Under the pieces are notes generated by a model, which saw only the letters and a list, made by a program, of their open reading frames with translations, had not been told where the DNA came from and ran no database searches. From Gammaproteobacteria bacterium (lineage in GTDB: Bacteria; Pseudomonadota; Gammaproteobacteria; JACCXJ01), in contig JBQTJM010000184.1 in NCBI GenBank assembly GCA_052387115.1, forward strand, positions 1 to 24,000: 24,000 nucleotides of DNA. Reading direction: 5' to 3'. The translations under genes were made by a program, and so were the position numbers. Shown in pieces: positions 1-22,539 of this stretch; position 1 is the first letter of the stretch, and every line of letters starts with the position of its first letter.

Positions 1-2105
1 CGATCGCCACCCGGGCCTCCCTTCAGGACGTCGTTTCCTGCTTCTCCGAACAGCATGTCGTTTCCGCGATGGCCGGACAGCCTATCGCGACCCGGACCAC
101 CGCAGATGACGTCGTTGCCGTCGAGCCCGGCGATCGTGTCGTTCCCGGCCAGGCCATGGATGACGTCATCCCGCGGGCTTCCGAATAGAATGTCACGCAC
201 ATCGGTCCCGACGACGGTTGCCGGGAGCCCGTTACACAGGACCGGAGGCGGTACCTGCGCGAGGCTGGCGTCGGCCCGGATCAACCCATGGCCGGTCCCG
301 AAGTCGAAACCAGTGTCGAACGCCGGCGTCGCCGGATCGTCCATGTCGATGGCCGTGTTTTTAAGAAGGGAATAGATACCATCGGGGTTGAATGCCGGGT
401 TCAGCTCCCTGATCAAGACCGCGACCGCGGCGGCGTGCGGGGCGGCGGCCGAGGTTCCGAAAAAGTTCGGGAAGCCCGTGCCGTCCGTGTCACTCCCGAA
501 AAACGTCGTGTCGGCCCCGTCCGGCGCCGTGATGTCCGGCTGCTCGCGGACCTCCGGTGTGGCGAGCCGGGATCCGGCGGTGTCGAAGAGGATGGGCGAG
601 CCCCCGGCCGACGAGAACGTCTCGATGAGCGGCGGGTCCACGCCGAACGCCGGCGTACGCTGGTAATCGGCGGCGCCGACGCCGAGCCCTCCTAATGCCG
701 CGCTATGGCCCCAAGAGGCGCCGGTCCTGGTGTCGAACTCGTCGATTGTGATAGAGCCACTTCCAACGTTCACCGTCTTCATCAGACTCGGGTTCGGCCC
801 AGAGAACTTTCCGATAATCACGCCGAAGGTGGTGTCGGGTCCCGCGTTGGTGAAGCTGAAGACCTCGAAGGGGTCCCCTCCGACGTTGTCGTCAGCGCTG
901 CGGTCAAGGACGGTGTTGCAGTCCGCGTCGGTGAGCACGATGTCCAGGTCGCTCGCCGAGCCCGGCGGGCCGCTGACCGAGGCGAAGGGCTCGTCCCATT
1001 GGAAGACCTGGGTCAACGTGCGGCCGACAGGGACAGTGATTTGCTGGCAGGCGTCGACGAGACCAGGATCCGGCTCGAAGTCGTGCGCCTCTTCCGGCCC
1101 GAAGCCGATGTCGACCAAGACGCCGCTCGGGCGGAACGGGGACTCGTAGGCATTGCGATCCGCATTGCCGGCCGAGCTGAAATAAGCCACCCCCATCCCT
1201 TTGACGGTGTTGACCGCCTGGGCGACGATGCCATCCTGGTAGAAGGGCTCGTCGAAGTAGATGACATCGTCGTTGATCACCGTTGCCCCGGCGTTGGCGA
1301 GATCGATGATGCCCTGGGCGAAAACCGCCTGCCCGCCGAACGCCGTGTGAAAGGCCTGGCTGGCCCCGGGGGCGACATCGTGGATGAGCTCCATCATGCC
1401 CCGCCCTTCGTCCGTCGCCGGACAAGAACCCTCTTCCAGGACGGTGATCCCCGCGGGCAGATCGCCGCTCGTGACGCCCGCTGTGGCACCCCCGAGGCAG
1501 TCGAAACTGTCCGACAGGGTGCCCACCATGACTCCGGCGCCATCTACGCCGAAGGCCGTGCGACCGAGGTCCGCGCGCATCGCGGCGTCCCCCTGACTGG
1601 TCACCTCGCCGACCTGGGTGGCCGCATAGGCGGGCCGTGCCAACTGCAGGGAGGGGAGGCTCTTGAGCGCCGGGATCGCGGTGATGGTCAGGCGGGCCGA
1701 CACCATGCGTCCGAACACCGTGACCTTGTCCGCCCCGAGCGCGCGCAGATCGGCGGCGAGGGCTTCCGGATCGCCCGAAGCGGCCGTATCGATGACCACC
1801 GATCCCCCGGTGATGGGTGCGATCATATTGCTCGACAGGAAGGCCGGGGCGGCCGCCCCTTGCCGCTTCGTCATCAGATGCGCCTGGTACTCCGCGTGTA
1901 ATGCCATGAGGTCGGCGCCCATCTTGGCCATGGCGGCCTTCGAGGGCGACGTGCCGAGCCCGAGGGTCTCGGCCCCGCGTAGCTCGATCACAGGAGGACC
2001 GGCGTCCTGGGCCGAGGCCGGCGGGGCGGTCGAGCCGAGGACAACGGCCGCGAGGACGAGTTTCAGGGTGGTTCGGGCGCTCGTCTCTCTACGCTGGATC
2101 ATCAT
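1..2105 (-). CDS. Secreted subtilisin-like (S8) serine protease with C-terminal hemolysin-type (RTX-like) Ca-binding repeats; the C-terminus runs off the window
   Basis: Absent from the ORF track because there is no stop inside the window. My reverse-complement translation starts at ATGATG (2105-2100), with GAGGAG at 2115-2110. The N-terminus MMIQRRETSARTTLKLVLAAVVLGSTAPPASA/QDAG looks like a Sec signal. The complement of 421-476 reads GFPNFFGTSAAAPHAAAV, the subtilase catalytic Ser motif. The complement of about 1-200 reads GNDTIAGLDGNDVICGGPGRDRLSGHRGNDMLFGEAGNDVLKGGPGGD, nonapeptide GGxGxD-type repeats. The frame is consistent from 2105 down to position 1. The long + strand ORF 705..1901 is its antisense shadow. 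Confidence 0.8.
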   Translation of the reverse strand, partial: MMIQRRETSARTTLKLVLAAVVLGSTAPPASAQDAGPPVIELRGAETLGLGTSPSKAAMAKMGADLMALHAEYQAHLMTKRQGAAAPAFLSSNMIAPITGGSVVIDTAASGDPEALAADLRALGADKVTVFGRMVSARLTITAIPALKSLPSLQLARPAYAATQVGEVTSQGDAAMRADLGRTAFGVDGAGVMVGTLSDSFDCLGGATAGVTSGDLPAGITVLEEGSCPATDEGRGMMELIHDVAPGASQAFHTAFGGQAVFAQGIIDLANAGATVINDDVIYFDEPFYQDGIVAQAVNTVKGMGVAYFSSAGNADRNAYESPFRPSGVLVDIGFGPEEAHDFEPDPGLVDACQQITVPVGRTLTQVFQWDEPFASVSGPPGSASDLDIVLTDADCNTVLDRSADDNVGGDPFEVFSFTNAGPDTTFGVIIGKFSGPNPSLMKTVNVGSGSITIDEFDTRTGASWGHSAALGGLGVGAADYQRTPAFGVDPPLIETFSSAGGSPILFDTAGSRLATPEVREQPDITAPDGADTTFFGSDTDGTGFPNFFGTSAAAPHAAAVAVLIRELNPAFNPDGIYSLLKNTAIDMDDPATPAFDTGFDFGTGHGLIRADASLAQVPPPVLCNGLPATVVGTDVRDILFGSPRDDVIHGLAGNDTIAGLDGNDVICGGPGRDRLSGHRGNDMLFGEAGNDVLKGGPGGD

Positions 2106-4816: not shown

Positions 4817-4968
4817 CGCGCGGCTCGCCCGCGTCGCCCCGGGGACGCCCCCCTGGCCCGGTCGCTCGCCGGGGTGCATCCAAAATCTCCTCTCCTGCGT
4901 AACATCTCTCGAACGGCGCCGTTTCATCAACCCTTTCGACCACACTGGTTATATTGGAGGAGACAGAC

Positions 4969-5889
4969 ATGTACGCGCGAACCCTGAGTGACCGTGCCTT
5001 TAGACACATCGTCATCCGGCATGCCGGCTGGTGCCTGGGCCTGGCGATGGCGGTGGCACTCTCTGCATCCCCGGCCCGAGCGACCAATTCCGACAGCGTG
5101 GGCCTCAAGGTCTTCGGTTTGACCGGCGATCAGTGGCTCGTCAAGTTTCGCAGCGACAGGCCCAGGCGCTTGCAGAAAATCGGTCCCATCGCGGGCTTGA
5201 ATTCGGCCGATACCGCCCTCGTCGGTATCGACTTCCGGGTCCAGGACGGGAAGCTCTACGGCCTCGGCAATGGTGGCGGGATCTACACCATCGACACCCG
5301 GACGGGGGTGGCATCGGAAGCGCCCGAATCGCCGCTCACGGTGCCCCTGGTGGGCAACTTCTTCGGCGTGGACTTCAACCCCGCGGCGAATGCGCTCAGA
5401 ATCATCAGCGACACCGGCCAGAACCTGCGCCACCGCTTCGCCCCGCAGTTCGCTCCCCAGAGGACGGCGCAGGATACCGATCTGGTCTATCCGGCCATAC
5501 CGGCCACGCCCACGACGCCCGCCATCCCCGCGACCCCCGGGATAGGGGTCACGGGCGCCGCGTACACCAATAACGACCTCGATCCCAACACCGCTACCAC
5601 GCTGTTCGACATCGACAGCCAGCGTAATCAAGTGGTGATCCAGTCGCCACCGAACGCCGGGGTGCTCACGGCGACCGGCGGCCTCACGGTGGACCCGGAC
5701 GCATCGGTCGGGTTCGACATCTATTCCAGGCTGAAAAACGGTGCGACCTTCAGCAATACCTCCTTCGCTTCGCTCATGGTCGGCGGCAAATCGCGCTTCT
5801 ACTCGGTGAGACTGTTGACCGGCAGGGCGTTCCTGATCGGCGCGTTCCCGGTGCCCATGGCGGACATCGCGGTCGCACTCAAGCAGTGA
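4969..5889 (+). CDS. Secreted DUF4394 domain protein
   Basis: ATG at 4969 is preceded by GGAGGAG (4956-4962). There is a signal-like segment, WCLGLAMAVALSASPARA. The motifs LVGIDFRVQDGKLYGLGNGGGIYTID, FGVDFNPAANALRIISDTGQNLR and LFDIDSQRNQVV match my recollection of DUF4394 proteins. Confidence 0.75.
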   Translation: MYARTLSDRAFRHIVIRHAGWCLGLAMAVALSASPARATNSDSVGLKVFGLTGDQWLVKFRSDRPRRLQKIGPIAGLNSADTALVGIDFRVQDGKLYGLGNGGGIYTIDTRTGVASEAPESPLTVPLVGNFFGVDFNPAANALRIISDTGQNLRHRFAPQFAPQRTAQDTDLVYPAIPATPTTPAIPATPGIGVTGAAYTNNDLDPNTATTLFDIDSQRNQVVIQSPPNAGVLTATGGLTVDPDASVGFDIYSRLKNGATFSNTSFASLMVGGKSRFYSVRLLTGRAFLIGAFPVPMADIAVALKQ

Positions 5890-5927
5890 TCCCCGAGGCA
5901 GTGATCCCCCAGGCAGTGATCCACTAA
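5883..5927 (+). repeat. 3 x 15-bp tandem repeat (GCAGTGATCCCCGAG / GCAGTGATCCCCCAG / GCAGTGATCCACTAA) starting in the last codons of the DUF4394 gene
   Basis: Read directly from the sequence. Each unit carries TGA in the gene's reading frame (5887, 5902, 5917). Confidence 0.9.
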
Positions 5928-5940
5928 TCCTGCGATCTTC

Positions 5941-5973
5941 GGCCGGGGCGCGGTGTCGCCCCGGCCGTTTTCT
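5941..5973 (+). terminator. Rho-independent terminator between the convergent DUF4394 and DUF2845 genes
   Basis: Perfect 10-bp GC stem GGCCGGGGCG (5941-5950) / CGCCCCGGCC (5957-5966) with a 6-nt loop, followed by GTTTTCT. Confidence 0.7.
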
Positions 5974-5995
5974 ATGCGGTGATGAGAAATCCGGG

Positions 5996-6313
5996 TTAAG
6001 GCCGGGTCACGGTCTCGATGTTGACCAGCCGGGTCCCCACGAAGGTCAGGATGCGTTGGAACGCCCCGGGCCCGGGTTCGTAGTACCACTGTTCGACGAA
6101 GCGCTCGTTGGCCCCCGAGATCTGCTGTTGAGAAGCAGGACGACCGCACTTCTTCAACACCTCGAACGAGGTGTCGCCGGGCCTGACGAGGCCCGTACCA
6201 CAGCGAAACGTATCGGCTCGGACCGTGCTCGCGGCGAGCCCGGCAAACAGCGCCGCCACGATGAGCCGGTTTCGCCGGCGGGACGAGCCTGGTCCTCTGG
6301 TTCCGGTCTTCAC
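5996..6313 (-). CDS. DUF2845 domain protein (small secreted or lipoprotein-like)
   Basis: The C-terminal about 75 aa, DTFRCGTGLVRPGDTSFEVLKKCGRPASQQQISGANERFVEQWYYEPGPGAFQRILTFVGTRLVNIETV, fit the DUF2845 pattern (Cys pair, W.Y..GP..F.R.L.F..G.L..IE). They follow the signal-like segment RRRNRLIVAALFAGLAASTVRA. The start is uncertain: I chose GTG at 6313, and ATG at 6424 or the track start at 6556 are alternatives. Confidence 0.55.
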   Translation of the reverse strand: MKTGTRGPGSSRRRNRLIVAALFAGLAASTVRADTFRCGTGLVRPGDTSFEVLKKCGRPASQQQISGANERFVEQWYYEPGPGAFQRILTFVGTRLVNIETVTRP

Positions 6314-6597
6314 CCTGATAGCATAGTCGATCCCTGCGTCGGCATACTCAATGAGCGTCCGCCCCCGGCGGGAGGCGATCTCGTCTCCGTCTCCCGGGCG
6401 CGTGACTTTGGAGCTCGGCCGCATCCACGGCGCCGGGGTGGGGCATCCGCCGCCCTGATCGGGGTGTGATAAGGTATGTAGCCTCGGTCCCCCGCTTCTC
6501 TGACGCGGGTCGGGGCGTGGCCGGAACCTGTTCCGAACCGGTGAGGACCGATTCATTGCCGCGCGTCACCGAGGCACGAGCTTCCATAGCCACCCCT

Positions 6598-7878
6598 ATG
6601 CCGGCACTCGCATCCATTCTGCTGATGCTTTGTGCGCCGCCCTTCGTCATCGTGCTCTGGTACACCAATGTGGCGCTCGGAGGATCCCTCTTATCCCTAT
6701 GGGAGTTATGCTCGCGCGAGGGGTTGTTCACGACGATTTACGCCGCCTGGCGGCCGGTGATGTTCGGCACGCCGGAGGCATGGATGATCCTGGGTGTGTT
6801 CGGGGGGCTGCAACTCGTGTTGATGCGGGTGGCGCCGGGCAGATCGTTTCACGGCCCGGTCACGCCGCGCGGAAACATCCCCGTTTACCGGGCCAACGGC
6901 CCGCTCGCGTTCTCGATCACCCTGGCGTTCTACTGGTTCGGCGCGTTTTATCTGCGGTTATTTTCCCCCGGCATCGTATACGACCACTTCGGCGGCATCC
7001 TGGGCGCGCTCAACCTGTCCGCCCTGATCCTGTGCCTCATGTTGTATGTGAAGGGGCGGGTGGCACCCTCGAGCAGCGACACCGAACACAGCGGTAGTCC
7101 CGGGTTCGATTTCTACCGGGGTACCGAGCTCTATCCGCGCATCCTCGGCTGGGACGTGAAGCAGCTCACCAACTGCCGCATCGGCATGATGGGCTGGGCG
7201 GTGATCATCATCTCCTTCGCGGCCGAGCAGCACGAGCTACACGGTCTCAGCGATTCCATGCTGGTCGCCGTGGCGCTGCAGCTCATGTACATCACGAAGT
7301 TTTTCTGGTGGGAAACCGGCTATCTGAGGACCCTCGATATCGTCCACGATCGCGCGGGTTTCTATATCTGCTGGGGATGTCTCGTATGGGTCCCGGGTGT
7401 CTACACCTCCGCTACTCTGTATCTGGTCAATCACCCGCGCCACCTCGGTATCCCACTGGCCGCCGCCATCCTCATCCTGGGCGCGACGTGCGTGATGACG
7501 ACCTACCTTGCCGATCGGCAGCGTCAGCACGTGCGCGCCACGAACGGCCGTTGCAGGGTCTGGGGCATGCCGCCACGGATCATCCGTGCCCGCTACTTCA
7601 CCGAGACCCGCGATCCGGGCCAGAGTCTCCTGCTCGCTTCCGGCTTCTGGGGGATCAGCCGCCATTTCCATTACCTGACGGAGACCCTGGGCGCCTTCTT
7701 CTGGAGCGTACCGGCGCTGTTCGAGCATTTTATGCCCTATGTCTACGTGACGTTCCTGGTGGTCTTGCTTGCGCATCGTGCCATACGCGATGACCGGCGT
7801 TGCGCGCGCAAGTACGGACAAGACTGGGAACGGTATTGCCGACTCGTGCCTTACAGGATCGTACCGGGCTTGTACTGA
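6598..7878 (+). CDS. ERG4/ERG24-family sterol reductase, closest in motif content to 7-dehydrocholesterol (Delta7-sterol) reductase DHCR7/DWF5
   Basis: Polytopic membrane protein. ISFAAEQHELHG, FFWWETGYLRTLDIVHDRAGFYICWGCLVWVPGVYT and NGRCRVWGMPPRIIRARY match remembered DHCR7 blocks ([51 protein letters not shown]). The C-terminus LLLASGFWGISRHFHYL...LLAHRAIRDDRRCARKYGQDWERYCRLVPYRIVPGLY matches the DHCR7 tail (GWWGVARHFNY...[34 protein letters not shown]). ATG at 6598 (MPALASILL) is taken as the start. The 44-aa Arg/Gly-rich extension from 6466 was rejected. Confidence 0.87.
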   Translation: MPALASILLMLCAPPFVIVLWYTNVALGGSLLSLWELCSREGLFTTIYAAWRPVMFGTPEAWMILGVFGGLQLVLMRVAPGRSFHGPVTPRGNIPVYRANGPLAFSITLAFYWFGAFYLRLFSPGIVYDHFGGILGALNLSALILCLMLYVKGRVAPSSSDTEHSGSPGFDFYRGTELYPRILGWDVKQLTNCRIGMMGWAVIIISFAAEQHELHGLSDSMLVAVALQLMYITKFFWWETGYLRTLDIVHDRAGFYICWGCLVWVPGVYTSATLYLVNHPRHLGIPLAAAILILGATCVMTTYLADRQRQHVRATNGRCRVWGMPPRIIRARYFTETRDPGQSLLLASGFWGISRHFHYLTETLGAFFWSVPALFEHFMPYVYVTFLVVLLAHRAIRDDRRCARKYGQDWERYCRLVPYRIVPGLY

Positions 7879-7903
7879 GCTGATCTGGTGTGGGAGGAGA
7901 CCT

Positions 7904-8515
7904 ATGAGATACGTGTTCGATCCCGCGCGCTTGTGCGAAATCTCGAAGATGGGCATCGGCCTGCCGCACTCGGAGATGTTTCAGGTCATTACGGACGAGC
8001 TTGCGAGAAGCTTTCCGGGCCGGATCATTACCGAGCCCGAATGGTTCTTCAACAATGCCGGGGGGGCGATGGGTATGTTGACCATCCTGTACGCCTCGTG
8101 GAAGGAGTATCTCATTTTTTTCGGCACTCCCATCGGTACCACCGGGCATACCGGCCGGTACTCGTTCATCGAGGACCATTGCTTTTTGCTTGACGGCGAG
8201 ATGTGGTATTACGCCGCCGGGGAGACCGACAAAACGGTTTATAGACCCGGGGATACGATCTATCTGGGCAAGGGCCAGGCGAAGTGTTATCGCATCGTCG
8301 ATCACGCCTGGATCCTCGAGTATGCCCGTGGCCCGATCGCGACCATGCTGCCGTTCGGCCTCGCCGATTCGCTTTTCAGCACGCTTGATTACACAACCGT
8401 CTTCCGCACCTTCCGGATCTACGGCAGGCATGTGATACGGAACACGTTTCGTCACGTTGCCCGCCGCGCCGGCCAGGAGGCGGAGAAGCGTTCCGGCAGA
8501 TCCGCCGGGCTGTGA
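7904..8515 (+). CDS. ERG2 / sigma-1-receptor family protein (C-8 sterol isomerase-like), lacking the N-terminal membrane anchor
   Basis: ATG at 7904 is preceded by GGGAGGAG (7892-7899). EWFFNNAGGAMGMLTILYASWKEYLIFFGTPIGTTGHTGRY...VYRPGDTIYLGKGQA...WILEYARGPIATMLPFGLADSLFSTLDY aligns with the remembered SIGMAR1/ERG2 core ([40 protein letters not shown]...FYPGETVVHGPGEA...[28 protein letters not shown]). Confidence 0.85.
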   Translation: MRYVFDPARLCEISKMGIGLPHSEMFQVITDELARSFPGRIITEPEWFFNNAGGAMGMLTILYASWKEYLIFFGTPIGTTGHTGRYSFIEDHCFLLDGEMWYYAAGETDKTVYRPGDTIYLGKGQAKCYRIVDHAWILEYARGPIATMLPFGLADSLFSTLDYTTVFRTFRIYGRHVIRNTFRHVARRAGQEAEKRSGRSAGL

Positions 8516-9213
8516 TAGGTCCCGCATAACCGATCCCAGAAGGTGAAGAACTGTCCGTAGTTATACCGAAAATACCAGTGGTGGGCCGTGTGACATCCTG
8601 CATGGTTGACGAAGCTCAATGGAGTCCAGCGGATGCGATCGTGGATCATGACGGCCCAGATCGTCACCAGGGTGACGAAGCCGTTGTATACCCATACGTG
8701 CAGGGGGAACAAGAGCGCACAGAGATGATAGGGCAAGGCCTGTGCAAACGAATCGAGCGGATGAAACGCCAGGCTGGCCAGCGGCGTGGGCTCTCGAAAC
8801 CGGTGGTGGAAGACGTGCAGGTGGCGGTAGAGAAAACGGGTATGCAGGGCGCGGTGGATCCAATAGATGGACGTTTCGGCGATGGCCAGGACGGCGAAAA
8901 TGCTGCCGAGCAGATAGGGCCAACCGTGCTCGGCCACCGAGAAATAGACCTCGCTCGCGCCAGACAGGATCAATACCTCGATCGGCAACATGAGGAGCGC
9001 GTTTCCGGAAACTGAATAGAGCGACCACAACACCGATCTGCGCAGCTCGTCAGCGTCGGGACGGTATCCCGGATGGTGCCTCTCGCGTCGTAAGACGAAA
9101 AACACGAGGTAACTGCCCCCGGCCAGGATCGCATAGAGACAAACCCCGAAGAGCGACAGCATGAGATACAGGCCGGTCAGGCCATGGCTCTCGTGGACCC
9201 AATAGAATACCAT
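8452..9213 (-). CDS. Fatty-acid-hydroxylase superfamily sterol desaturase, SC5D/ERG3 (C-5 sterol desaturase / lathosterol oxidase)-like
   Basis: There are three His boxes: HRALH, HVFHHRF and HTAHHWYF. WIHRALHTRFLYRHLHVFHHRFREPTPLASLAFHPLDSFAQALPYH...PLH...IWAVMIHD...HTAHHWYFRYNYGQFFTFWDRLCGTY is colinear with the remembered human SC5D block ([46 protein letters not shown]...IWTISIHDG...[27 protein letters not shown]). ATG at 9213 has GGAAGGG 8 nt upstream. Confidence 0.83.
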   Translation of the reverse strand: MVFYWVHESHGLTGLYLMLSLFGVCLYAILAGGSYLVFFVLRRERHHPGYRPDADELRRSVLWSLYSVSGNALLMLPIEVLILSGASEVYFSVAEHGWPYLLGSIFAVLAIAETSIYWIHRALHTRFLYRHLHVFHHRFREPTPLASLAFHPLDSFAQALPYHLCALLFPLHVWVYNGFVTLVTIWAVMIHDRIRWTPLSFVNHAGCHTAHHWYFRYNYGQFFTFWDRLCGTYHSPADLPERFSASWPARRAT

Positions 9214-9315
9214 GGCGGTTGCCCTTCCTGCCCGCGGGCGTGCTGATCGTCCTAGGCGGTGTGTCGGAGCAGCGAGTCGCCCGCTTGCTGCCTAGCTAGC
9301 GGCCGGCCGAGCCTG

Positions 9316-10230
9316 TCACCTACATTCCAGAAGGTCCTTAAATTCCTGCCCTGCGCTCTGATAGGCCAGCGCCCTGGCCTTCTGCAGGTTGTCATGGGCC
9401 TCGGCGTAGTAGGCGGGGGACTGCTTGATGGCCTCGACGAAGTAGTCCTCTGCCTGCCGGTACTTCCCGTCGATCAAGCAGAGATAGCCCACGCTGTTCG
9501 AGGCACGTGATTCGGGCATGATGCGCGTGAACGCATCCATCGCCTTGTTATATCGTCCGGTGCGCACGTACAAGAGGCCGAGGTTGGACCAGGCCTTCTC
9601 GTGCCGGGGATTGATCTGTAATGCCCGCTCGAATTGCGACTGCGCACCCTCCAGGTCCCCGGCCGAATACTTCGAGTAGCCGAGGTTGGTCAACAACATG
9701 GCGGCGTCGGGCCGCTCGCGGAGGGCCGCTTGATAATGCTGTTCGGCGGCCGGGTAGTCGTGGTTCAGATCGGCGATGACGCCGAGCCCGTTGTGGGCAC
9801 GCCAGCGGTGCTCATCGGCGGCCAGGGCCCTTTCCAGATACGCCTTGGCCTCCTCCGGTTTCTTGTCGCGGAGCAGCACGAGACCGATACCCTCGAGCGC
9901 GCCGGCATGCTCCTTGGCTATGGACAGGGTCTCGTGAAAGGCGCGCATCGCCAGTTCTAGATTGCCCTTGAGGTAGTGGATGACGCCGACCATATAGTGG
10001 GCGTCCGCCTTGTCCTCCTCCAGACTCAGGACGTTCACATACTCGAAGAGCGCCCGGTCGAGCTCCCCCTGGCGCAGCGCGGCGTCGGCGCGCGCCATGC
10101 CCACCTCCGCCTGCTTGGTGTCGTCCTGTGCTTCCGTCGTGGCGGCCGGCTCGAACAGCGTCGCGCAACCCCCCATCCCGATCGCGGCCATGAGCACCGC
10201 GCCCCTGAAGATACCGAAATGCATCGTCAT
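9316..10230 (-). CDS. tadD: TadD-like TPR-repeat lipoprotein
   Basis: There are multiple TPR units (repeated A..Y..AL...P....A..NLG patterns). The N-terminus MTMHFGIFRGAVLMAAIGMGGC is lipobox-like. ATG at 10230 is preceded by GGAGGTG at 6-nt spacing, and I prefer it to the track's TTG at 10260. It is the last gene of the tad operon. Confidence 0.8.
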   Translation of the reverse strand: MTMHFGIFRGAVLMAAIGMGGCATLFEPAATTEAQDDTKQAEVGMARADAALRQGELDRALFEYVNVLSLEEDKADAHYMVGVIHYLKGNLELAMRAFHETLSIAKEHAGALEGIGLVLLRDKKPEEAKAYLERALAADEHRWRAHNGLGVIADLNHDYPAAEQHYQAALRERPDAAMLLTNLGYSKYSAGDLEGAQSQFERALQINPRHEKAWSNLGLLYVRTGRYNKAMDAFTRIMPESRASNSVGYLCLIDGKYRQAEDYFVEAIKQSPAYYAEAHDNLQKARALAYQSAGQEFKDLLECR

Positions 10231-10300: not shown

Positions 10301-11263
10301 TCAATGCGCCGTCTGAAACACGCGGATCACGGCCAAGACCGCCGGCCCCACGGCCACGAGGAAGAACGACGGCCACAGGCAGAACACCATCGGAAAGATC
10401 ATCTTCGTTCCGATCTTCGCGGCGGCCTCCTCGGCGCGCTGCATGCGCTTGTCGCGGAACTCCTCCGAGTAGATCCGCAAGGTATCCCCGATACTCGTTC
10501 CGAAGCGCACGCTCTGGCACAAGAGCGAGACCAGGCCGCGGATATCATCGAGCCCGGTGCGCTCCGCCAGCGCCTTCAGGGCGTCCGTGCGCTCCACCCC
10601 CGCCTGGATCCCCGCGTTCACGAGCGCCAGCTCCATGGCGAGCGCCTCGTGGCTGACCACGAGCTCCTCGGCCACGCGCTGGAGCGCGGCGTTCAAGCCG
10701 AGCCCCGCCTCGGTACAGGTCACGAGCAGGTCCAACGCATCCGGGAAACCGTTCATGATCGCGCGCCTGCGGCGCTCGGCGCGGCGGCTAACATACAGGT
10801 TCGGCAGGAACAGGGCGACGCCGCCTGCATAGAGCGCGGCCATCAGGACCTCTGTCGTGCCCAATCCCGGGAAGAACGTCGCCCCGAGCACGACCACGGC
10901 CGCCACGGACAGCAGCAGTATCACCTTCGCCGCGTAGAAGGTCATGAGGGCGGTACCGGAGCGGAACCCCGCCTGGAGGAGCTTGGCCCGCATGCCGGAA
11001 CGTTCCACATCGCTCTTGGGCAGGACATAGGCGCCGAAGGGCTCGACCACCTTCGCGAGGTGCGCGAAGCGACCCCGGTCTTCGCCGCTCACGCCGGAGA
11101 CCGCCTGGAGGCGGCGCCGGAACGGATCGAAAACGCCGGTCACGACCACGAGGACGCTCAGGCCGAACAAGGCGGCGGCGAAACCGATGCTCCCGGCGAG
11201 CAGCCAGCGCGCTTGCGCCGGATCGCTCGCGATCTGCGAAAAGAACTGCGCCAGGTATTCCAT
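10301..11263 (-). CDS. tadC: TadC (type II secretion F-family inner-membrane platform protein)
   Basis: 320-aa polytopic protein with GspF-like repeats. It sits directly after tadB. GAGGAG lies upstream of ATG 11263. Confidence 0.9.
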   Translation of the reverse strand: MEYLAQFFSQIASDPAQARWLLAGSIGFAAALFGLSVLVVVTGVFDPFRRRLQAVSGVSGEDRGRFAHLAKVVEPFGAYVLPKSDVERSGMRAKLLQAGFRSGTALMTFYAAKVILLLSVAAVVVLGATFFPGLGTTEVLMAALYAGGVALFLPNLYVSRRAERRRRAIMNGFPDALDLLVTCTEAGLGLNAALQRVAEELVVSHEALAMELALVNAGIQAGVERTDALKALAERTGLDDIRGLVSLLCQSVRFGTSIGDTLRIYSEEFRDKRMQRAEEAAAKIGTKMIFPMVFCLWPSFFLVAVGPAVLAVIRVFQTAH

Positions 11264-21825: not shown

Positions 21826-22539
21826 CTAAAACACATAAGGCATCAACCGCCAACGGACTGATGTGGCATAACGCTGGTAGCGCTCGTCCCGGAGAAGGTG
21901 GCGCTCCTCGAAAATGATCCGTAAGAGCATCATTCCCATCCACGCAACGACTATCGAGAAGTTGTACCAGGACGTGTTGGCCAGTAGATACCCGCTTAAG
22001 GTGACCAAATAACTCGCATACAAAGGGTGGCGGATAACGCCATAAACCCCCTGGGTTTTCACGCCCCTGTTCGCAGGCACGATCCCGAAGCTTCTGTTCA
22101 AGACTAAGGCCCCCGCGATCTGAAGGCAGATCCCGAGCGTCATCACAATGCTGCCGAGGTACGGCGCCAAGCCTTGCATGGAAGGCCGCAGCAATAAAGG
22201 CAAAAACGTTCCTCCCGCCGAAACTGCCCATTCTAGCGGGCTCGTGGACTTGCTCATCTGGTCCCTTCTTACTATAAACATCAGCGCAAGCCAAGCCTCT
22301 GCGAACACCAGCAGCAAAAGAGAGAAGGCGTTGGTCTTTTGGAAACTGGTATAGTGGCTAAATGCGAAGAGACCCCATAACGCCGCCGCGGAAACGTTCA
22401 CGAGCAATATCCGCATGGCAATCAAGACATTCATCATGTTCATGGCTCTATACCTGCCAATAAAACGCATCCAAGAATGCTTGATATGAACCCATAGCCT
22501 GGATGGACCGAAGCGGAATCCAGTAATACGCCCGATCAT
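21826..22539 (-). CDS. ICMT/PEMT-family integral-membrane methyltransferase (isoprenylcysteine carboxyl methyltransferase-like), low-GC
   Basis: The C-terminal signature is TQGVYGVIRHPLYASYLVTLSGYLLANTSW...LLRIIFEERHLLRDERYQRYATSVRWRLMPYVF (RHP.Y ... EE..L ... Y..Y). There are several TM helices. ATG 22539-22537 overlaps the tadV TGA 22538-22536 (ATGA). ATG at 22443 (MNMMNVL) is an alternative start. Hand counts give 30/60 GC on lines 21901-21960 and 22261-22320, against 43/60 on tadV line 22681-22740. Confidence 0.8.
   Translation of the reverse strand: MIGRITGFRFGPSRLWVHIKHSWMRFIGRYRAMNMMNVLIAMRILLVNVSAAALWGLFAFSHYTSFQKTNAFSLLLLVFAEAWLALMFIVRRDQMSKSTSPLEWAVSAGGTFLPLLLRPSMQGLAPYLGSIVMTLGICLQIAGALVLNRSFGIVPANRGVKTQGVYGVIRHPLYASYLVTLSGYLLANTSWYNFSIVVAWMGMMLLRIIFEERHLLRDERYQRYATSVRWRLMPYVF

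Follow-up and report, generated by a model that had tools for sequence, protein, structure and literature searches.

Can a gammaproteobacterium finish a sterol ring in the way that eukaryotes do? The question is raised by three adjacent genes in a 24,000-nucleotide stretch of an uncultured gammaproteobacterium (contig JBQTJM010000184.1, positions 1 to 24,000; hereafter the window). Sterol tailoring beyond C-4 and C-14 demethylation has long been considered eukaryotic, and steranes in rocks are read as eukaryote fossils; to our knowledge, cholesterol synthesis has so far been demonstrated in one bacterial phylum only, the Myxococcota. A sequence-only reading of the window had noted likenesses to a DHCR7-type sterol reductase, an ERG2/sigma-1 receptor-type isomerase, and an SC5D/ERG3-type desaturase, enzymes acting one after another in eukaryotes. 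The sequence comparisons reported here bear this interpretation out. Judged by them, the trio is no novel type of system but a newly found, compact example, from Gammaproteobacteria, of the bacterial homologues of late sterol enzymes. We consider it rather likely that the three proteins would form a working set that finishes the sterol ring, using a Delta8 sterol made by the organism itself.

The three open reading frames lie exactly where they had been placed, at 6598-7878, 7904-8515, and 8452-9213; genes called independently on a public contig of identical sequence have the same boundaries, with products of 426, 203, and 253 residues. The strands, unmentioned before, are plus for the reductase and isomerase genes and minus for the desaturase gene, which converges with the isomerase gene so that their 3' ends overlap by 64 nt. 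Because only 25 nt separate the reductase stop from the isomerase start, these two genes are probably co-transcribed; the gap holds the Shine-Dalgarno-like ribosome-binding site GGGAGGAG (7892-7899, plus strand), 4 nt before the isomerase ATG as read from the sequence. A search of 5850-9400 revealed no sigma-70-like promoter, nor did the convergent isomerase and desaturase genes have a convincing terminator between them.

Profile searches, suggested along with the sequence-only reading, placed all three proteins well above the curated cut-offs of Pfam families ERG4_ERG24, ERG2_Sigma1R, and FA_hydroxylase. As these families are broad, subfamilies were assigned by identity to reference enzymes and by bootstrapped neighbour-joining (NJ) trees. 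The references, each confirmed by exact protein look-up, were human DHCR7, SC5D, SIGMAR1, TM7SF2, MSMO1, and CH25H; Arabidopsis DWF5 and STE1; and yeast ERG2, ERG3, ERG4, ERG24, ERG25, and SUR2. A sequence taken for Arabidopsis FACKEL had no exact match and was excluded from the comparisons. An NCBIfam search of the trio returned no useful family, the best match of the desaturase being OlsE at 31 bits vs a cut-off of 475.

The putative Delta7-sterol reductase matched ERG4_ERG24 over residues 57-426 (E=5e-75, 253 bits vs a cut-off of 27) and aligned with MaSR1 (4quv; E=3.8e-62), including the C-terminal sterol-reductase/NADPH motifs LLLASGFWGISRHFHY and RDDRRCARKYGQDWERYCRLVPYRIVP. It is 52% identical to Arabidopsis DWF5 over the full length, 35% to human DHCR7, and 26% to either ERG24 or ERG4, and its identity to the annotated DHCR7 proteins of Coxiella, Parachlamydia, and Protochlamydia is 60-65%. 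In a distance (NJ) tree with few eukaryotes, rather than a full maximum-likelihood tree, the protein grouped with DWF5 and bacterial DHCR7 at 100% bootstrap, and the DHCR7 group including the human enzyme stood apart from the C-14 and C-24(28) reductases at 99%. Its hydropathy pattern mirrors that of DWF5. The DHCR7 assignment made in the sequence-only reading is supported by these comparisons, which point to a reductase of this type rather than of the ERG24, TM7SF2, or ERG4 type.

The minus-strand protein, a putative Delta7-sterol C-5(6) desaturase, matched FA_hydroxylase (E=3.6e-26, 93 bits vs a cut-off of 31). Its identity is 38% to human SC5D, 37% to yeast ERG3, 31% to Arabidopsis STE1, and 20% to ERG25. 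In the tree it was placed with its bacterial relatives as sister to SC5D/ERG3/STE1, with 98.5% bootstrap support against ERG25, MSMO1, CH25H, and SUR2, in agreement with the SC5D/ERG3 identity proposed earlier. The histidine boxes scored as ligands of the di-iron centre (HX3H, HX2HH, and HX2HH) are complete: H120, H124, H133, H136, H137, H208, H211, and H212 are invariant with SC5D, ERG3, STE1, and ERG25. The protein also keeps H191 and the SC5D-type motif TPLASLAFHPLDS, and its hydropathy pattern mirrors that of SC5D. A sequence search of the PDB returned no match for the desaturase.

The putative sterol Delta8-Delta7 isomerase matched ERG2_Sigma1R (E=5e-62, 209 bits vs a cut-off of 21) and the structure of the human sigma-1 receptor (S1R; 5hk1, E=2e-35 over 174 residues), with 41% identity to yeast ERG2 and 38% to human SIGMAR1; its membership of the ERG2/sigma-1 family, whose domain is a cupin-like barrel, thus stands. 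In the alignment, Glu139 corresponds to the buried Glu172 of S1R and is invariant across ERG2, S1R, and the bacterial homologues. The acidic pair E90-D91 matches the DD of yeast ERG2, and the position of S1R Asp126 is taken by Cys93. Loss of catalytic residues, which the sequence-only reading had named as a sign against sterol enzymes, is therefore not what we found: both the histidine boxes of the desaturase and the conserved glutamate of the isomerase are intact. Among the phylogenies proposed with that reading, those of the reductase and the desaturase resolved as claimed, and that of the ERG2 family, with low support, no outgroup, and only two eukaryotes, was uninformative. Support for the predicted Delta8-to-Delta7 isomerase activity comes from gene context, as orthologues of the protein sit directly after epoxidase-cyclase genes in sterol operons. 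IMG annotates proteins 93-96% identical to those of the window as '7-dehydrocholesterol reductase' and 'Delta7-sterol 5-desaturase', and isomerase homologues of about 60% identity as 'C-8 sterol isomerase'.

The operon context of the homologues is indeed the strongest evidence that the trio encodes sterol enzymes. The nearest relatives outside the lineage do not fall into generic bacterial non-sterol clades, an outcome that the earlier reading had allowed for; they lie in operons with cyclase, epoxidase, CYP51, and SdmAB genes. Isomerase homologues of 58-63% identity close operons at loci L013/L014, L005, L006, and L010. The operons of L013/L014, L005, and L006, carried on chromosomes of gammaproteobacterial metagenome-assembled genomes (MAGs) and on metagenome contigs, comprise a 3beta-HSD (SdmB-like), a Rieske oxygenase (SdmA-like), a C-14-type reductase, CYP51, and a fused squalene epoxidase-oxidosqualene cyclase (epoxidase-cyclase). 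L010/L011 combine SdmA, a C-14 reductase, CYP51, an epoxidase-cyclase, a C-5 desaturase 63% identical to that of the window, a DHCR7-like reductase 42% identical to ours, a DHCR24-like flavoprotein, and the isomerase. L018 has the desaturase most similar to ours outside the lineage (67%), directly after an epoxidase-cyclase and tail-to-tail with an ERG2 gene in the same geometry as in the window; a sterol methyltransferase follows. In L020, the isomerase, desaturase, and cyclase genes stand beside insertion sequence elements, a group II intron reverse transcriptase, and a TrwC relaxase. The nearest reductase relatives, P0125 and P0128, were placed in de novo sterol clusters as well. On long contigs, the nearest one (65%; L015) adjoins an epoxidase, SdmA/B, a sterol methyltransferase, and a DHCR24-like gene, and the next (64%; L022/L023) lies inside a series of SdmA, SdmB, epoxidase, CYP51, reductase, Rieske, and cyclase genes.

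Some of these loci deserve a description of their own. L010 (1-10573 of the JGI metagenome contig Ga0613754_000048) is a single co-directional operon with a fused epoxidase-cyclase of 1143 residues, and on paper this one uncultured bacterium would have almost the whole of a cholesterol-type pathway. L020 (10001-20594 of the 160-kb ENA contig ctg815808) has a shortened desaturase of 198 residues and a stand-alone oxidosqualene cyclase; its neighbours also include SSB and a Toprim protein, and the relaxase is of the TrwC/TraI kind, which suggests that its sterol genes are carried on a conjugative element. Within sterol clusters, plant-type DHCR7-like reductase genes repeatedly stand divergent from a gene for a KshA_C-type Rieske oxygenase (L022 5081-7335, L023, L024, and L015 8822-11287). 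In eukaryotes, the C-7 desaturation of sterols is carried out by Rieske oxygenases of this kind (Neverland/DAF-36, Tetrahymena DES7), and by analogy the reductase and oxygenase of such pairs may handle the Delta7 bond in another way.

All three genes of the window are clearly under purifying selection. Against seven to eight relatives, dN/dS was 0.17-0.25 for the reductase, 0.14-0.30 for the isomerase, and 0.12-0.17 for the desaturase, with zero indels. The possibility that the trio is a relic or a pseudogene was ruled out by these values (0.12-0.30) and the lack of indels.

How, then, might the trio work? Given what ERG2, SC5D/ERG3, and DHCR7/DWF5 are established to do, and given the operon contexts, we infer three activities and steps; the order, the cofactors, the co-transcription, and the de novo source of the substrate are likewise predictions. 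The ERG2-type protein would shift the Delta8 double bond to Delta7, the SC5D/ERG3-type di-iron desaturase would use O2 to add Delta5 and give a Delta5,7-diene, and the DWF5/DHCR7-type reductase would use NADPH to remove Delta7, leaving a Delta5 (cholesterol-type) nucleus. The enzymes would be membrane-associated. Their substrate would be supplied by early genes elsewhere in the genome, namely those for epoxidase, cyclase, CYP51, C-14 reductase, and SdmAB.

De novo synthesis of the substrate is favoured over scavenging by biochemical logic, because a Delta8-Delta7 isomerase is useful only with Delta8 intermediates, which are scarce in the environment. Own synthesis is also favoured because the conserved block around the trio (described below) resembles the detached tail of an L018-type operon, and because bacterial sterol genes can be dispersed, as in Enhygromyxa salina (PMC10202945). 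When flipped, L018 reads methyltransferase, isomerase, and then, on the opposite strand, desaturase preceded by epoxidase-cyclase. The slot upstream of the isomerase is occupied by the plant-type DHCR7 in the window, and the slot directly upstream of the desaturase, filled by the epoxidase-cyclase in L018, is a variable junction in the window lineage. To judge from this arrangement, the block looks like such a detached tail.

A number of observations weigh against this interpretation. The bacterial isomerase is without the N-terminal membrane anchor seen in ERG2 and S1R: the bacterial homologues all begin at the position of S1R residue 35, and no hydrophobic 19-mer scoring at least 1.5 occurs in the window isomerase, as against one each in ERG2 and S1R. 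The anchor belongs to the topology of the eukaryotic proteins and is no part of the catalytic domain. Eukaryotic C-5 desaturases take their electrons from cytochrome b5, and no electron-donor gene (cytochrome b5-like or ferredoxin) is adjacent to the desaturase gene. The window is also without some 85 bp upstream of the desaturase that its relatives have in common, making expression here uncertain. No early sterol gene is present in the 24-kb window, where Pfam scans of the large open reading frames and tblastn with reference sterol proteins found no epoxidase, cyclase, CYP51, or C-4 demethylation gene, just as had been reported from the sequence alone; nor is there one within 10 kb of the trio in the related contigs L001, L019, and L105. 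The same type of reductase is found in Coxiella, Legionella drancourtii, and Chlamydiae, which are without sterol synthesis and for which action on host sterols has been proposed (PMC2667531). In L022/L023, the sole ERG4/ERG24 gene is of this type and comes right after CYP51, so that by analogy the clade could reduce Delta14 instead of, or besides, Delta7. Finally, the literature that we searched reports no assayed protein from these bacterial clades.

A serious alternative keeps the enzymes and drops the synthesis. The block would then be a self-sufficient, horizontally shuffled 'ring-finishing' cassette, with which a gammaproteobacterium unable to cyclise squalene remodels sterols from eukaryotes or other bacteria (Delta8, Delta7, or Delta5,7) to Delta5. 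The lack of cyclase, epoxidase, and CYP51 genes in the window and within 10 kb in the relatives speaks for such a cassette, and so does the membership of cyclase-less intracellular bacteria in the reductase clade, with their proposed use of host sterols (PMC2667531). Moreover, the block occurs in at least four genomic contexts among near-identical relatives and thus behaves as a self-contained unit. However, Delta8 sterols are transient and scarce outside cells, so that an isomerase kept under purifying selection would be hard to explain, and every informative relative of the isomerase or desaturase is linked to de novo genes. The distance from early genes is also less telling in view of E. 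salina, whose complete pathway is scattered across the genome (PMC10202945). We regard foreign sterols as a possible but doubtful source. Were they the source, they could come from sterol-producing bacteria nearby or from eukaryotic prey or hosts; the cassette would parallel, in a free-living bacterium, the use of host sterols that has been proposed for Coxiella and Chlamydiae, and cyclase-less bacteria could contribute cholesterol-type sterols to sediments.

A second alternative concerns the reductase, which would act as a C-14 enzyme on Delta14 and not on Delta7. The sequence would then run from Delta8,14 through Delta8 and Delta7 to Delta5,7, with an ergosterol-type diene nucleus as the end product. 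This would suit the 64%-identical L022/L023 homologue as the only family member of its operon; it would also suit L018, where the isomerase and desaturase are accompanied only by a C-14-type reductase, and the closest solved structure is that of a bacterial Delta14 reductase, MaSR1. Still, the protein is 52% identical to DWF5 vs 26-38% to TM7SF2 and ERG24, the C-14 reductases encoded in bacterial sterol operons branch as a clade of their own, and L010 has both C-14-type and DHCR7-type genes, which implies distinct roles. In L022, moreover, an unannotated gene of 153 codons after the cyclase could encode an NTF2-type 8,14 reductase (PMC13277303). On balance, a Delta14 role for the window reductase seems unlikely, and we return to Delta7 reduction as the last step on an endogenous sterol.

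How widespread is such a set? Metagenome contigs scanned with the ERG2 profile yielded 80 loci. A trio with this reductase type was present at only four of them, all at least 87% identical to the window and hence of the same lineage; at about a dozen more, a sterol gene of some kind is close by. The majority of ERG2 homologues with 50-55% identity are solitary, surrounded by housekeeping genes unrelated to sterols. Three MAGs designated Gammaproteobacteria bacterium carry the same genes at about 94% amino acid identity; the MAGs of the trio lineage are JACCXJ01 (MGR_bin175), JBOIDT01, and JBOIDR01, and the block is also present on ENA contigs ERZ25039565:contig_18309 and ERZ25039511:contig_28304. 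In a published survey of 124 cyclase-bearing bacterial genomes, C-8 isomerase, 7-dehydroreductase, and C-5 desaturase occurred together only in Myxococcota (PMC10202945), namely in Enhygromyxa, Sandaracinus, and Minicystis (PMC10202945, Supplementary Data 1), and neither 7-dehydroreductase nor C-5 desaturase was found in any gammaproteobacterium (PMC10202945). The compact cluster of late steps is thus as rare as first supposed. Among PLSDB plasmids there was no ERG2 homologue and one distant reductase match (Planktothrix, 27%); with no PLSDB copies, plasmid carriage of the trio is unsupported.

That the trio acts on non-sterol polycyclic lipids or secondary metabolites, its sterol-like family membership being misleading, is very improbable: the solitary metagenomic ERG2 homologues and a Bradyrhizobium set of reductase, isomerase, and frameshifted desaturase genes could be taken that way, but the nearest homologues of the window proteins belong to bona fide sterol operons and not to those groups, and that their eukaryotic counterparts act consecutively on the same ring positions, as is established for the pathway, would otherwise be a striking coincidence.

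The two groups just mentioned can be described more closely. For most bacterial ERG2-family genes at 50-55% identity (L040-L062, L072, and others), no sterol gene lies within up to 10 kb; the neighbours of such lone genes include those for a thioredoxin-reductase-like protein, PBP1, EF-G, TerC, and an integrase. The Bradyrhizobium set (L012 8444-11424; Bradyrhizobium sp. BR 1432, JBPUGF010000003.1) consists of a reductase of 499 residues, an ERG2 homologue, and a desaturase that seems to carry a +1 frameshift near 11109. Around the set are four P450s, several radical-SAM genes, and an aromatic prenyltransferase of the ABBA type. An intact desaturase homologue, P0282, is present in B. diazoefficiens. 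Bradyrhizobium is a hopanoid-producing genus.

Among the nearest published parallels is the cholesterol pathway of E. salina and related Myxococcota, whose homologues of C-8 isomerase, C-5 desaturase, and 7-dehydro-reductase lead to Delta5 sterols (Lee, Wei & Welander 2023, PMC10202945). The same three late functions are predicted for the window, and in Minicystis rosea the 7-dehydroreductase and C-5 desaturase genes are even adjacent (PMC10202945, Supplementary Data 1), with a desaturase 56% identical to ours. In contrast to the window, with its compact block and no early gene located, the myxococcal genomes contain a cyclase and their late genes are mostly dispersed; moreover, the window reductase is of the plant/Chlamydiae type, unlike theirs. 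Stand-alone DHCR7 proteins of Coxiella burnetii, Legionella drancourtii, and Protochlamydia/Parachlamydia belong, at 60-62% identity to the window protein, to the same reductase clade with plant DWF5 (Moliner et al. 2009, PMC2667531; Desmond & Gribaldo 2009, PMC2817430). They are isolated genes of intracellular bacteria without an ERG2 or ERG3 partner, whereas the window reductase is operon-linked to the isomerase and near the desaturase. Closer in taxonomy, Methylotuvimicrobium/Methylomicrobium MEALZ_1312/1311 also join a gammaproteobacterial ERG4/ERG24 reductase to an ERG2 isomerase (PMC10202945, Supplementary Data 1; PMC13277303). That pair, however, is from a known sterol producer, has no C-5 desaturase, and includes the C-14-type MaSR1, which is clearly more distant from the window reductase than DWF5 is.

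With the eukaryotic ERG2/SIGMAR1, SC5D/ERG3/STE1, and DHCR7/DWF5 proteins, the window trio shares domains and catalytic motifs at 37-52% identity, although the eukaryotic genes are not clustered and their isomerase has the N-terminal anchor. L010/L011, L013, and L018 provide orthologues of the isomerase or desaturase at 58-67% identity; there the late genes are attached to SdmAB, C-14 reductase, CYP51, and fused epoxidase-cyclase genes, and those of the window are not. L010 further differs in its DHCR7-like reductase (42%) and its DHCR24-like flavoprotein.

The trio further supports the view that complex "eukaryotic" sterols are not confined to eukaryotes, and together with the complete operons of its relatives it extends the range of potential bacterial producers of Delta5 sterols beyond the Myxococcota. 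It also bears on the origin of plant-type DHCR7, whose relatives are now found within bacterial de novo sterol clusters and not in intracellular parasites alone. Being small and clustered, the genes offer a three-gene unit that is directly testable in existing E. coli systems for sterol production.

The surroundings of the trio tell of its mobility. A conserved 3.2-kb block (5993-9237), made up of a DUF2845 gene and the trio, was delimited by blastn; it shows 92-95% nucleotide identity to eight related contigs (those compared include L001, L003, L019, L105, L025, L026, and L028). At 9237/9238, 24 nt ahead of the desaturase start codon, homology to every relative stops. The relatives have about 85 bp more in common and then part, with at least four different contexts among them: L001 continues with nitrate reductase genes; L019 with DcuC, a CDP-alcohol phosphatidyltransferase, a 3beta-HSD-like gene, transposases, and a P450 other than CYP51; and L105/L028 with helicase fragments and another P450. 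In the window, the neighbour is a tad pilus operon, whose last gene, TPR (TadD-like), ends 102 nt before the desaturase in the same direction (9214-9316), and the desaturase may depend on read-through transcription from it. No direct or inverted repeats above chance flank the block ends, and the window contains no tRNA, integrase, or transposase. As repeats, tRNA, integrase, and plasmid copies are all missing, the junction is a rearrangement hot spot rather than a recognisable mobile element.

A 3beta-HSD-like gene lies a few kilobases off the desaturase side of the block in two close relatives, L019 and L105, and is about 35% identical to the SdmB-like genes of the sterol clusters. Together with the P450s of the same regions (L019 15748-18052 and L105 5773-7464), it could represent further sterol-modifying genes, none of which is in the window. 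The P450s were rejected as CYP51, their identity being 24-30% vs 50-85% among true orthologues.

Horizontal acquisition had been argued from GC content. The counts made by hand (35/60, 33/60, and 35/60) were exact on recount, and the dip is real, with windowed GC of 0.59-0.61 across the trio vs 0.65-0.70 in the flanks. The argument is weaker than it had appeared, however: third-position GC (GC3) is only modestly lower (0.76-0.81 vs about 0.84-0.94 in most neighbours), and part of the dip reflects a first-position composition typical of membrane proteins. For these reasons composition is weak evidence for recent transfer, and the variable flank is the stronger evidence of mobility.

The window has undergone a rearrangement of its own between the isomerase and desaturase genes. 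A spacer of 168-283 bp, present in the closest relatives (L001 5507-5772, L002 6550-6718, and L003 6550-6833), is cleanly deleted at 8452-8515. The deletion removed the isomerase stop codon and therefore gave rise to a 20-residue tail and to the 64-nt overlap; the conserved isomerase domain spans 7904-8452, and the tail (8453-8515) is lineage-specific and antisense to the desaturase gene. The spacer of L001 and L003 holds a palindromic, REP-like element, CCCCTCTCCCTCC...GGGAGAGGG...GGTGAGGGGATCAA.

The fourth gene of the block (DUF2845, 5996-6424, minus strand; Pfam DUF2845, 1e-15) is co-inherited with the trio in all close relatives, adjoins the reductase gene in L001-L003, L019, L025, L027, and L028, and has a dN/dS of 0.26-0.36; we found nothing tying DUF2845 to the sterol pathway.

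Farther from the trio, an open reading frame of 398 codons at 705-1901 (plus strand) has no Pfam match and an inverted composition (first-position GC 0.84, GC3 0.65), and is probably not the real reading frame of the region. A membrane methyltransferase gene of the PEMT/ICMT family (21826-22539, minus strand) lies in a second low-GC patch (gene GC 0.525; GC3 0.68, the window's lowest) and may likewise be an acquired, lipid-related gene. A DUF4394 gene (4954-5889) is absent from L001 and L002, an indel of about 1.07 kb, and is followed by a 15-nt unit present three times in tandem (5879-5917) and then by a strong hairpin, rich in GC and with a T-run (5940-5967).

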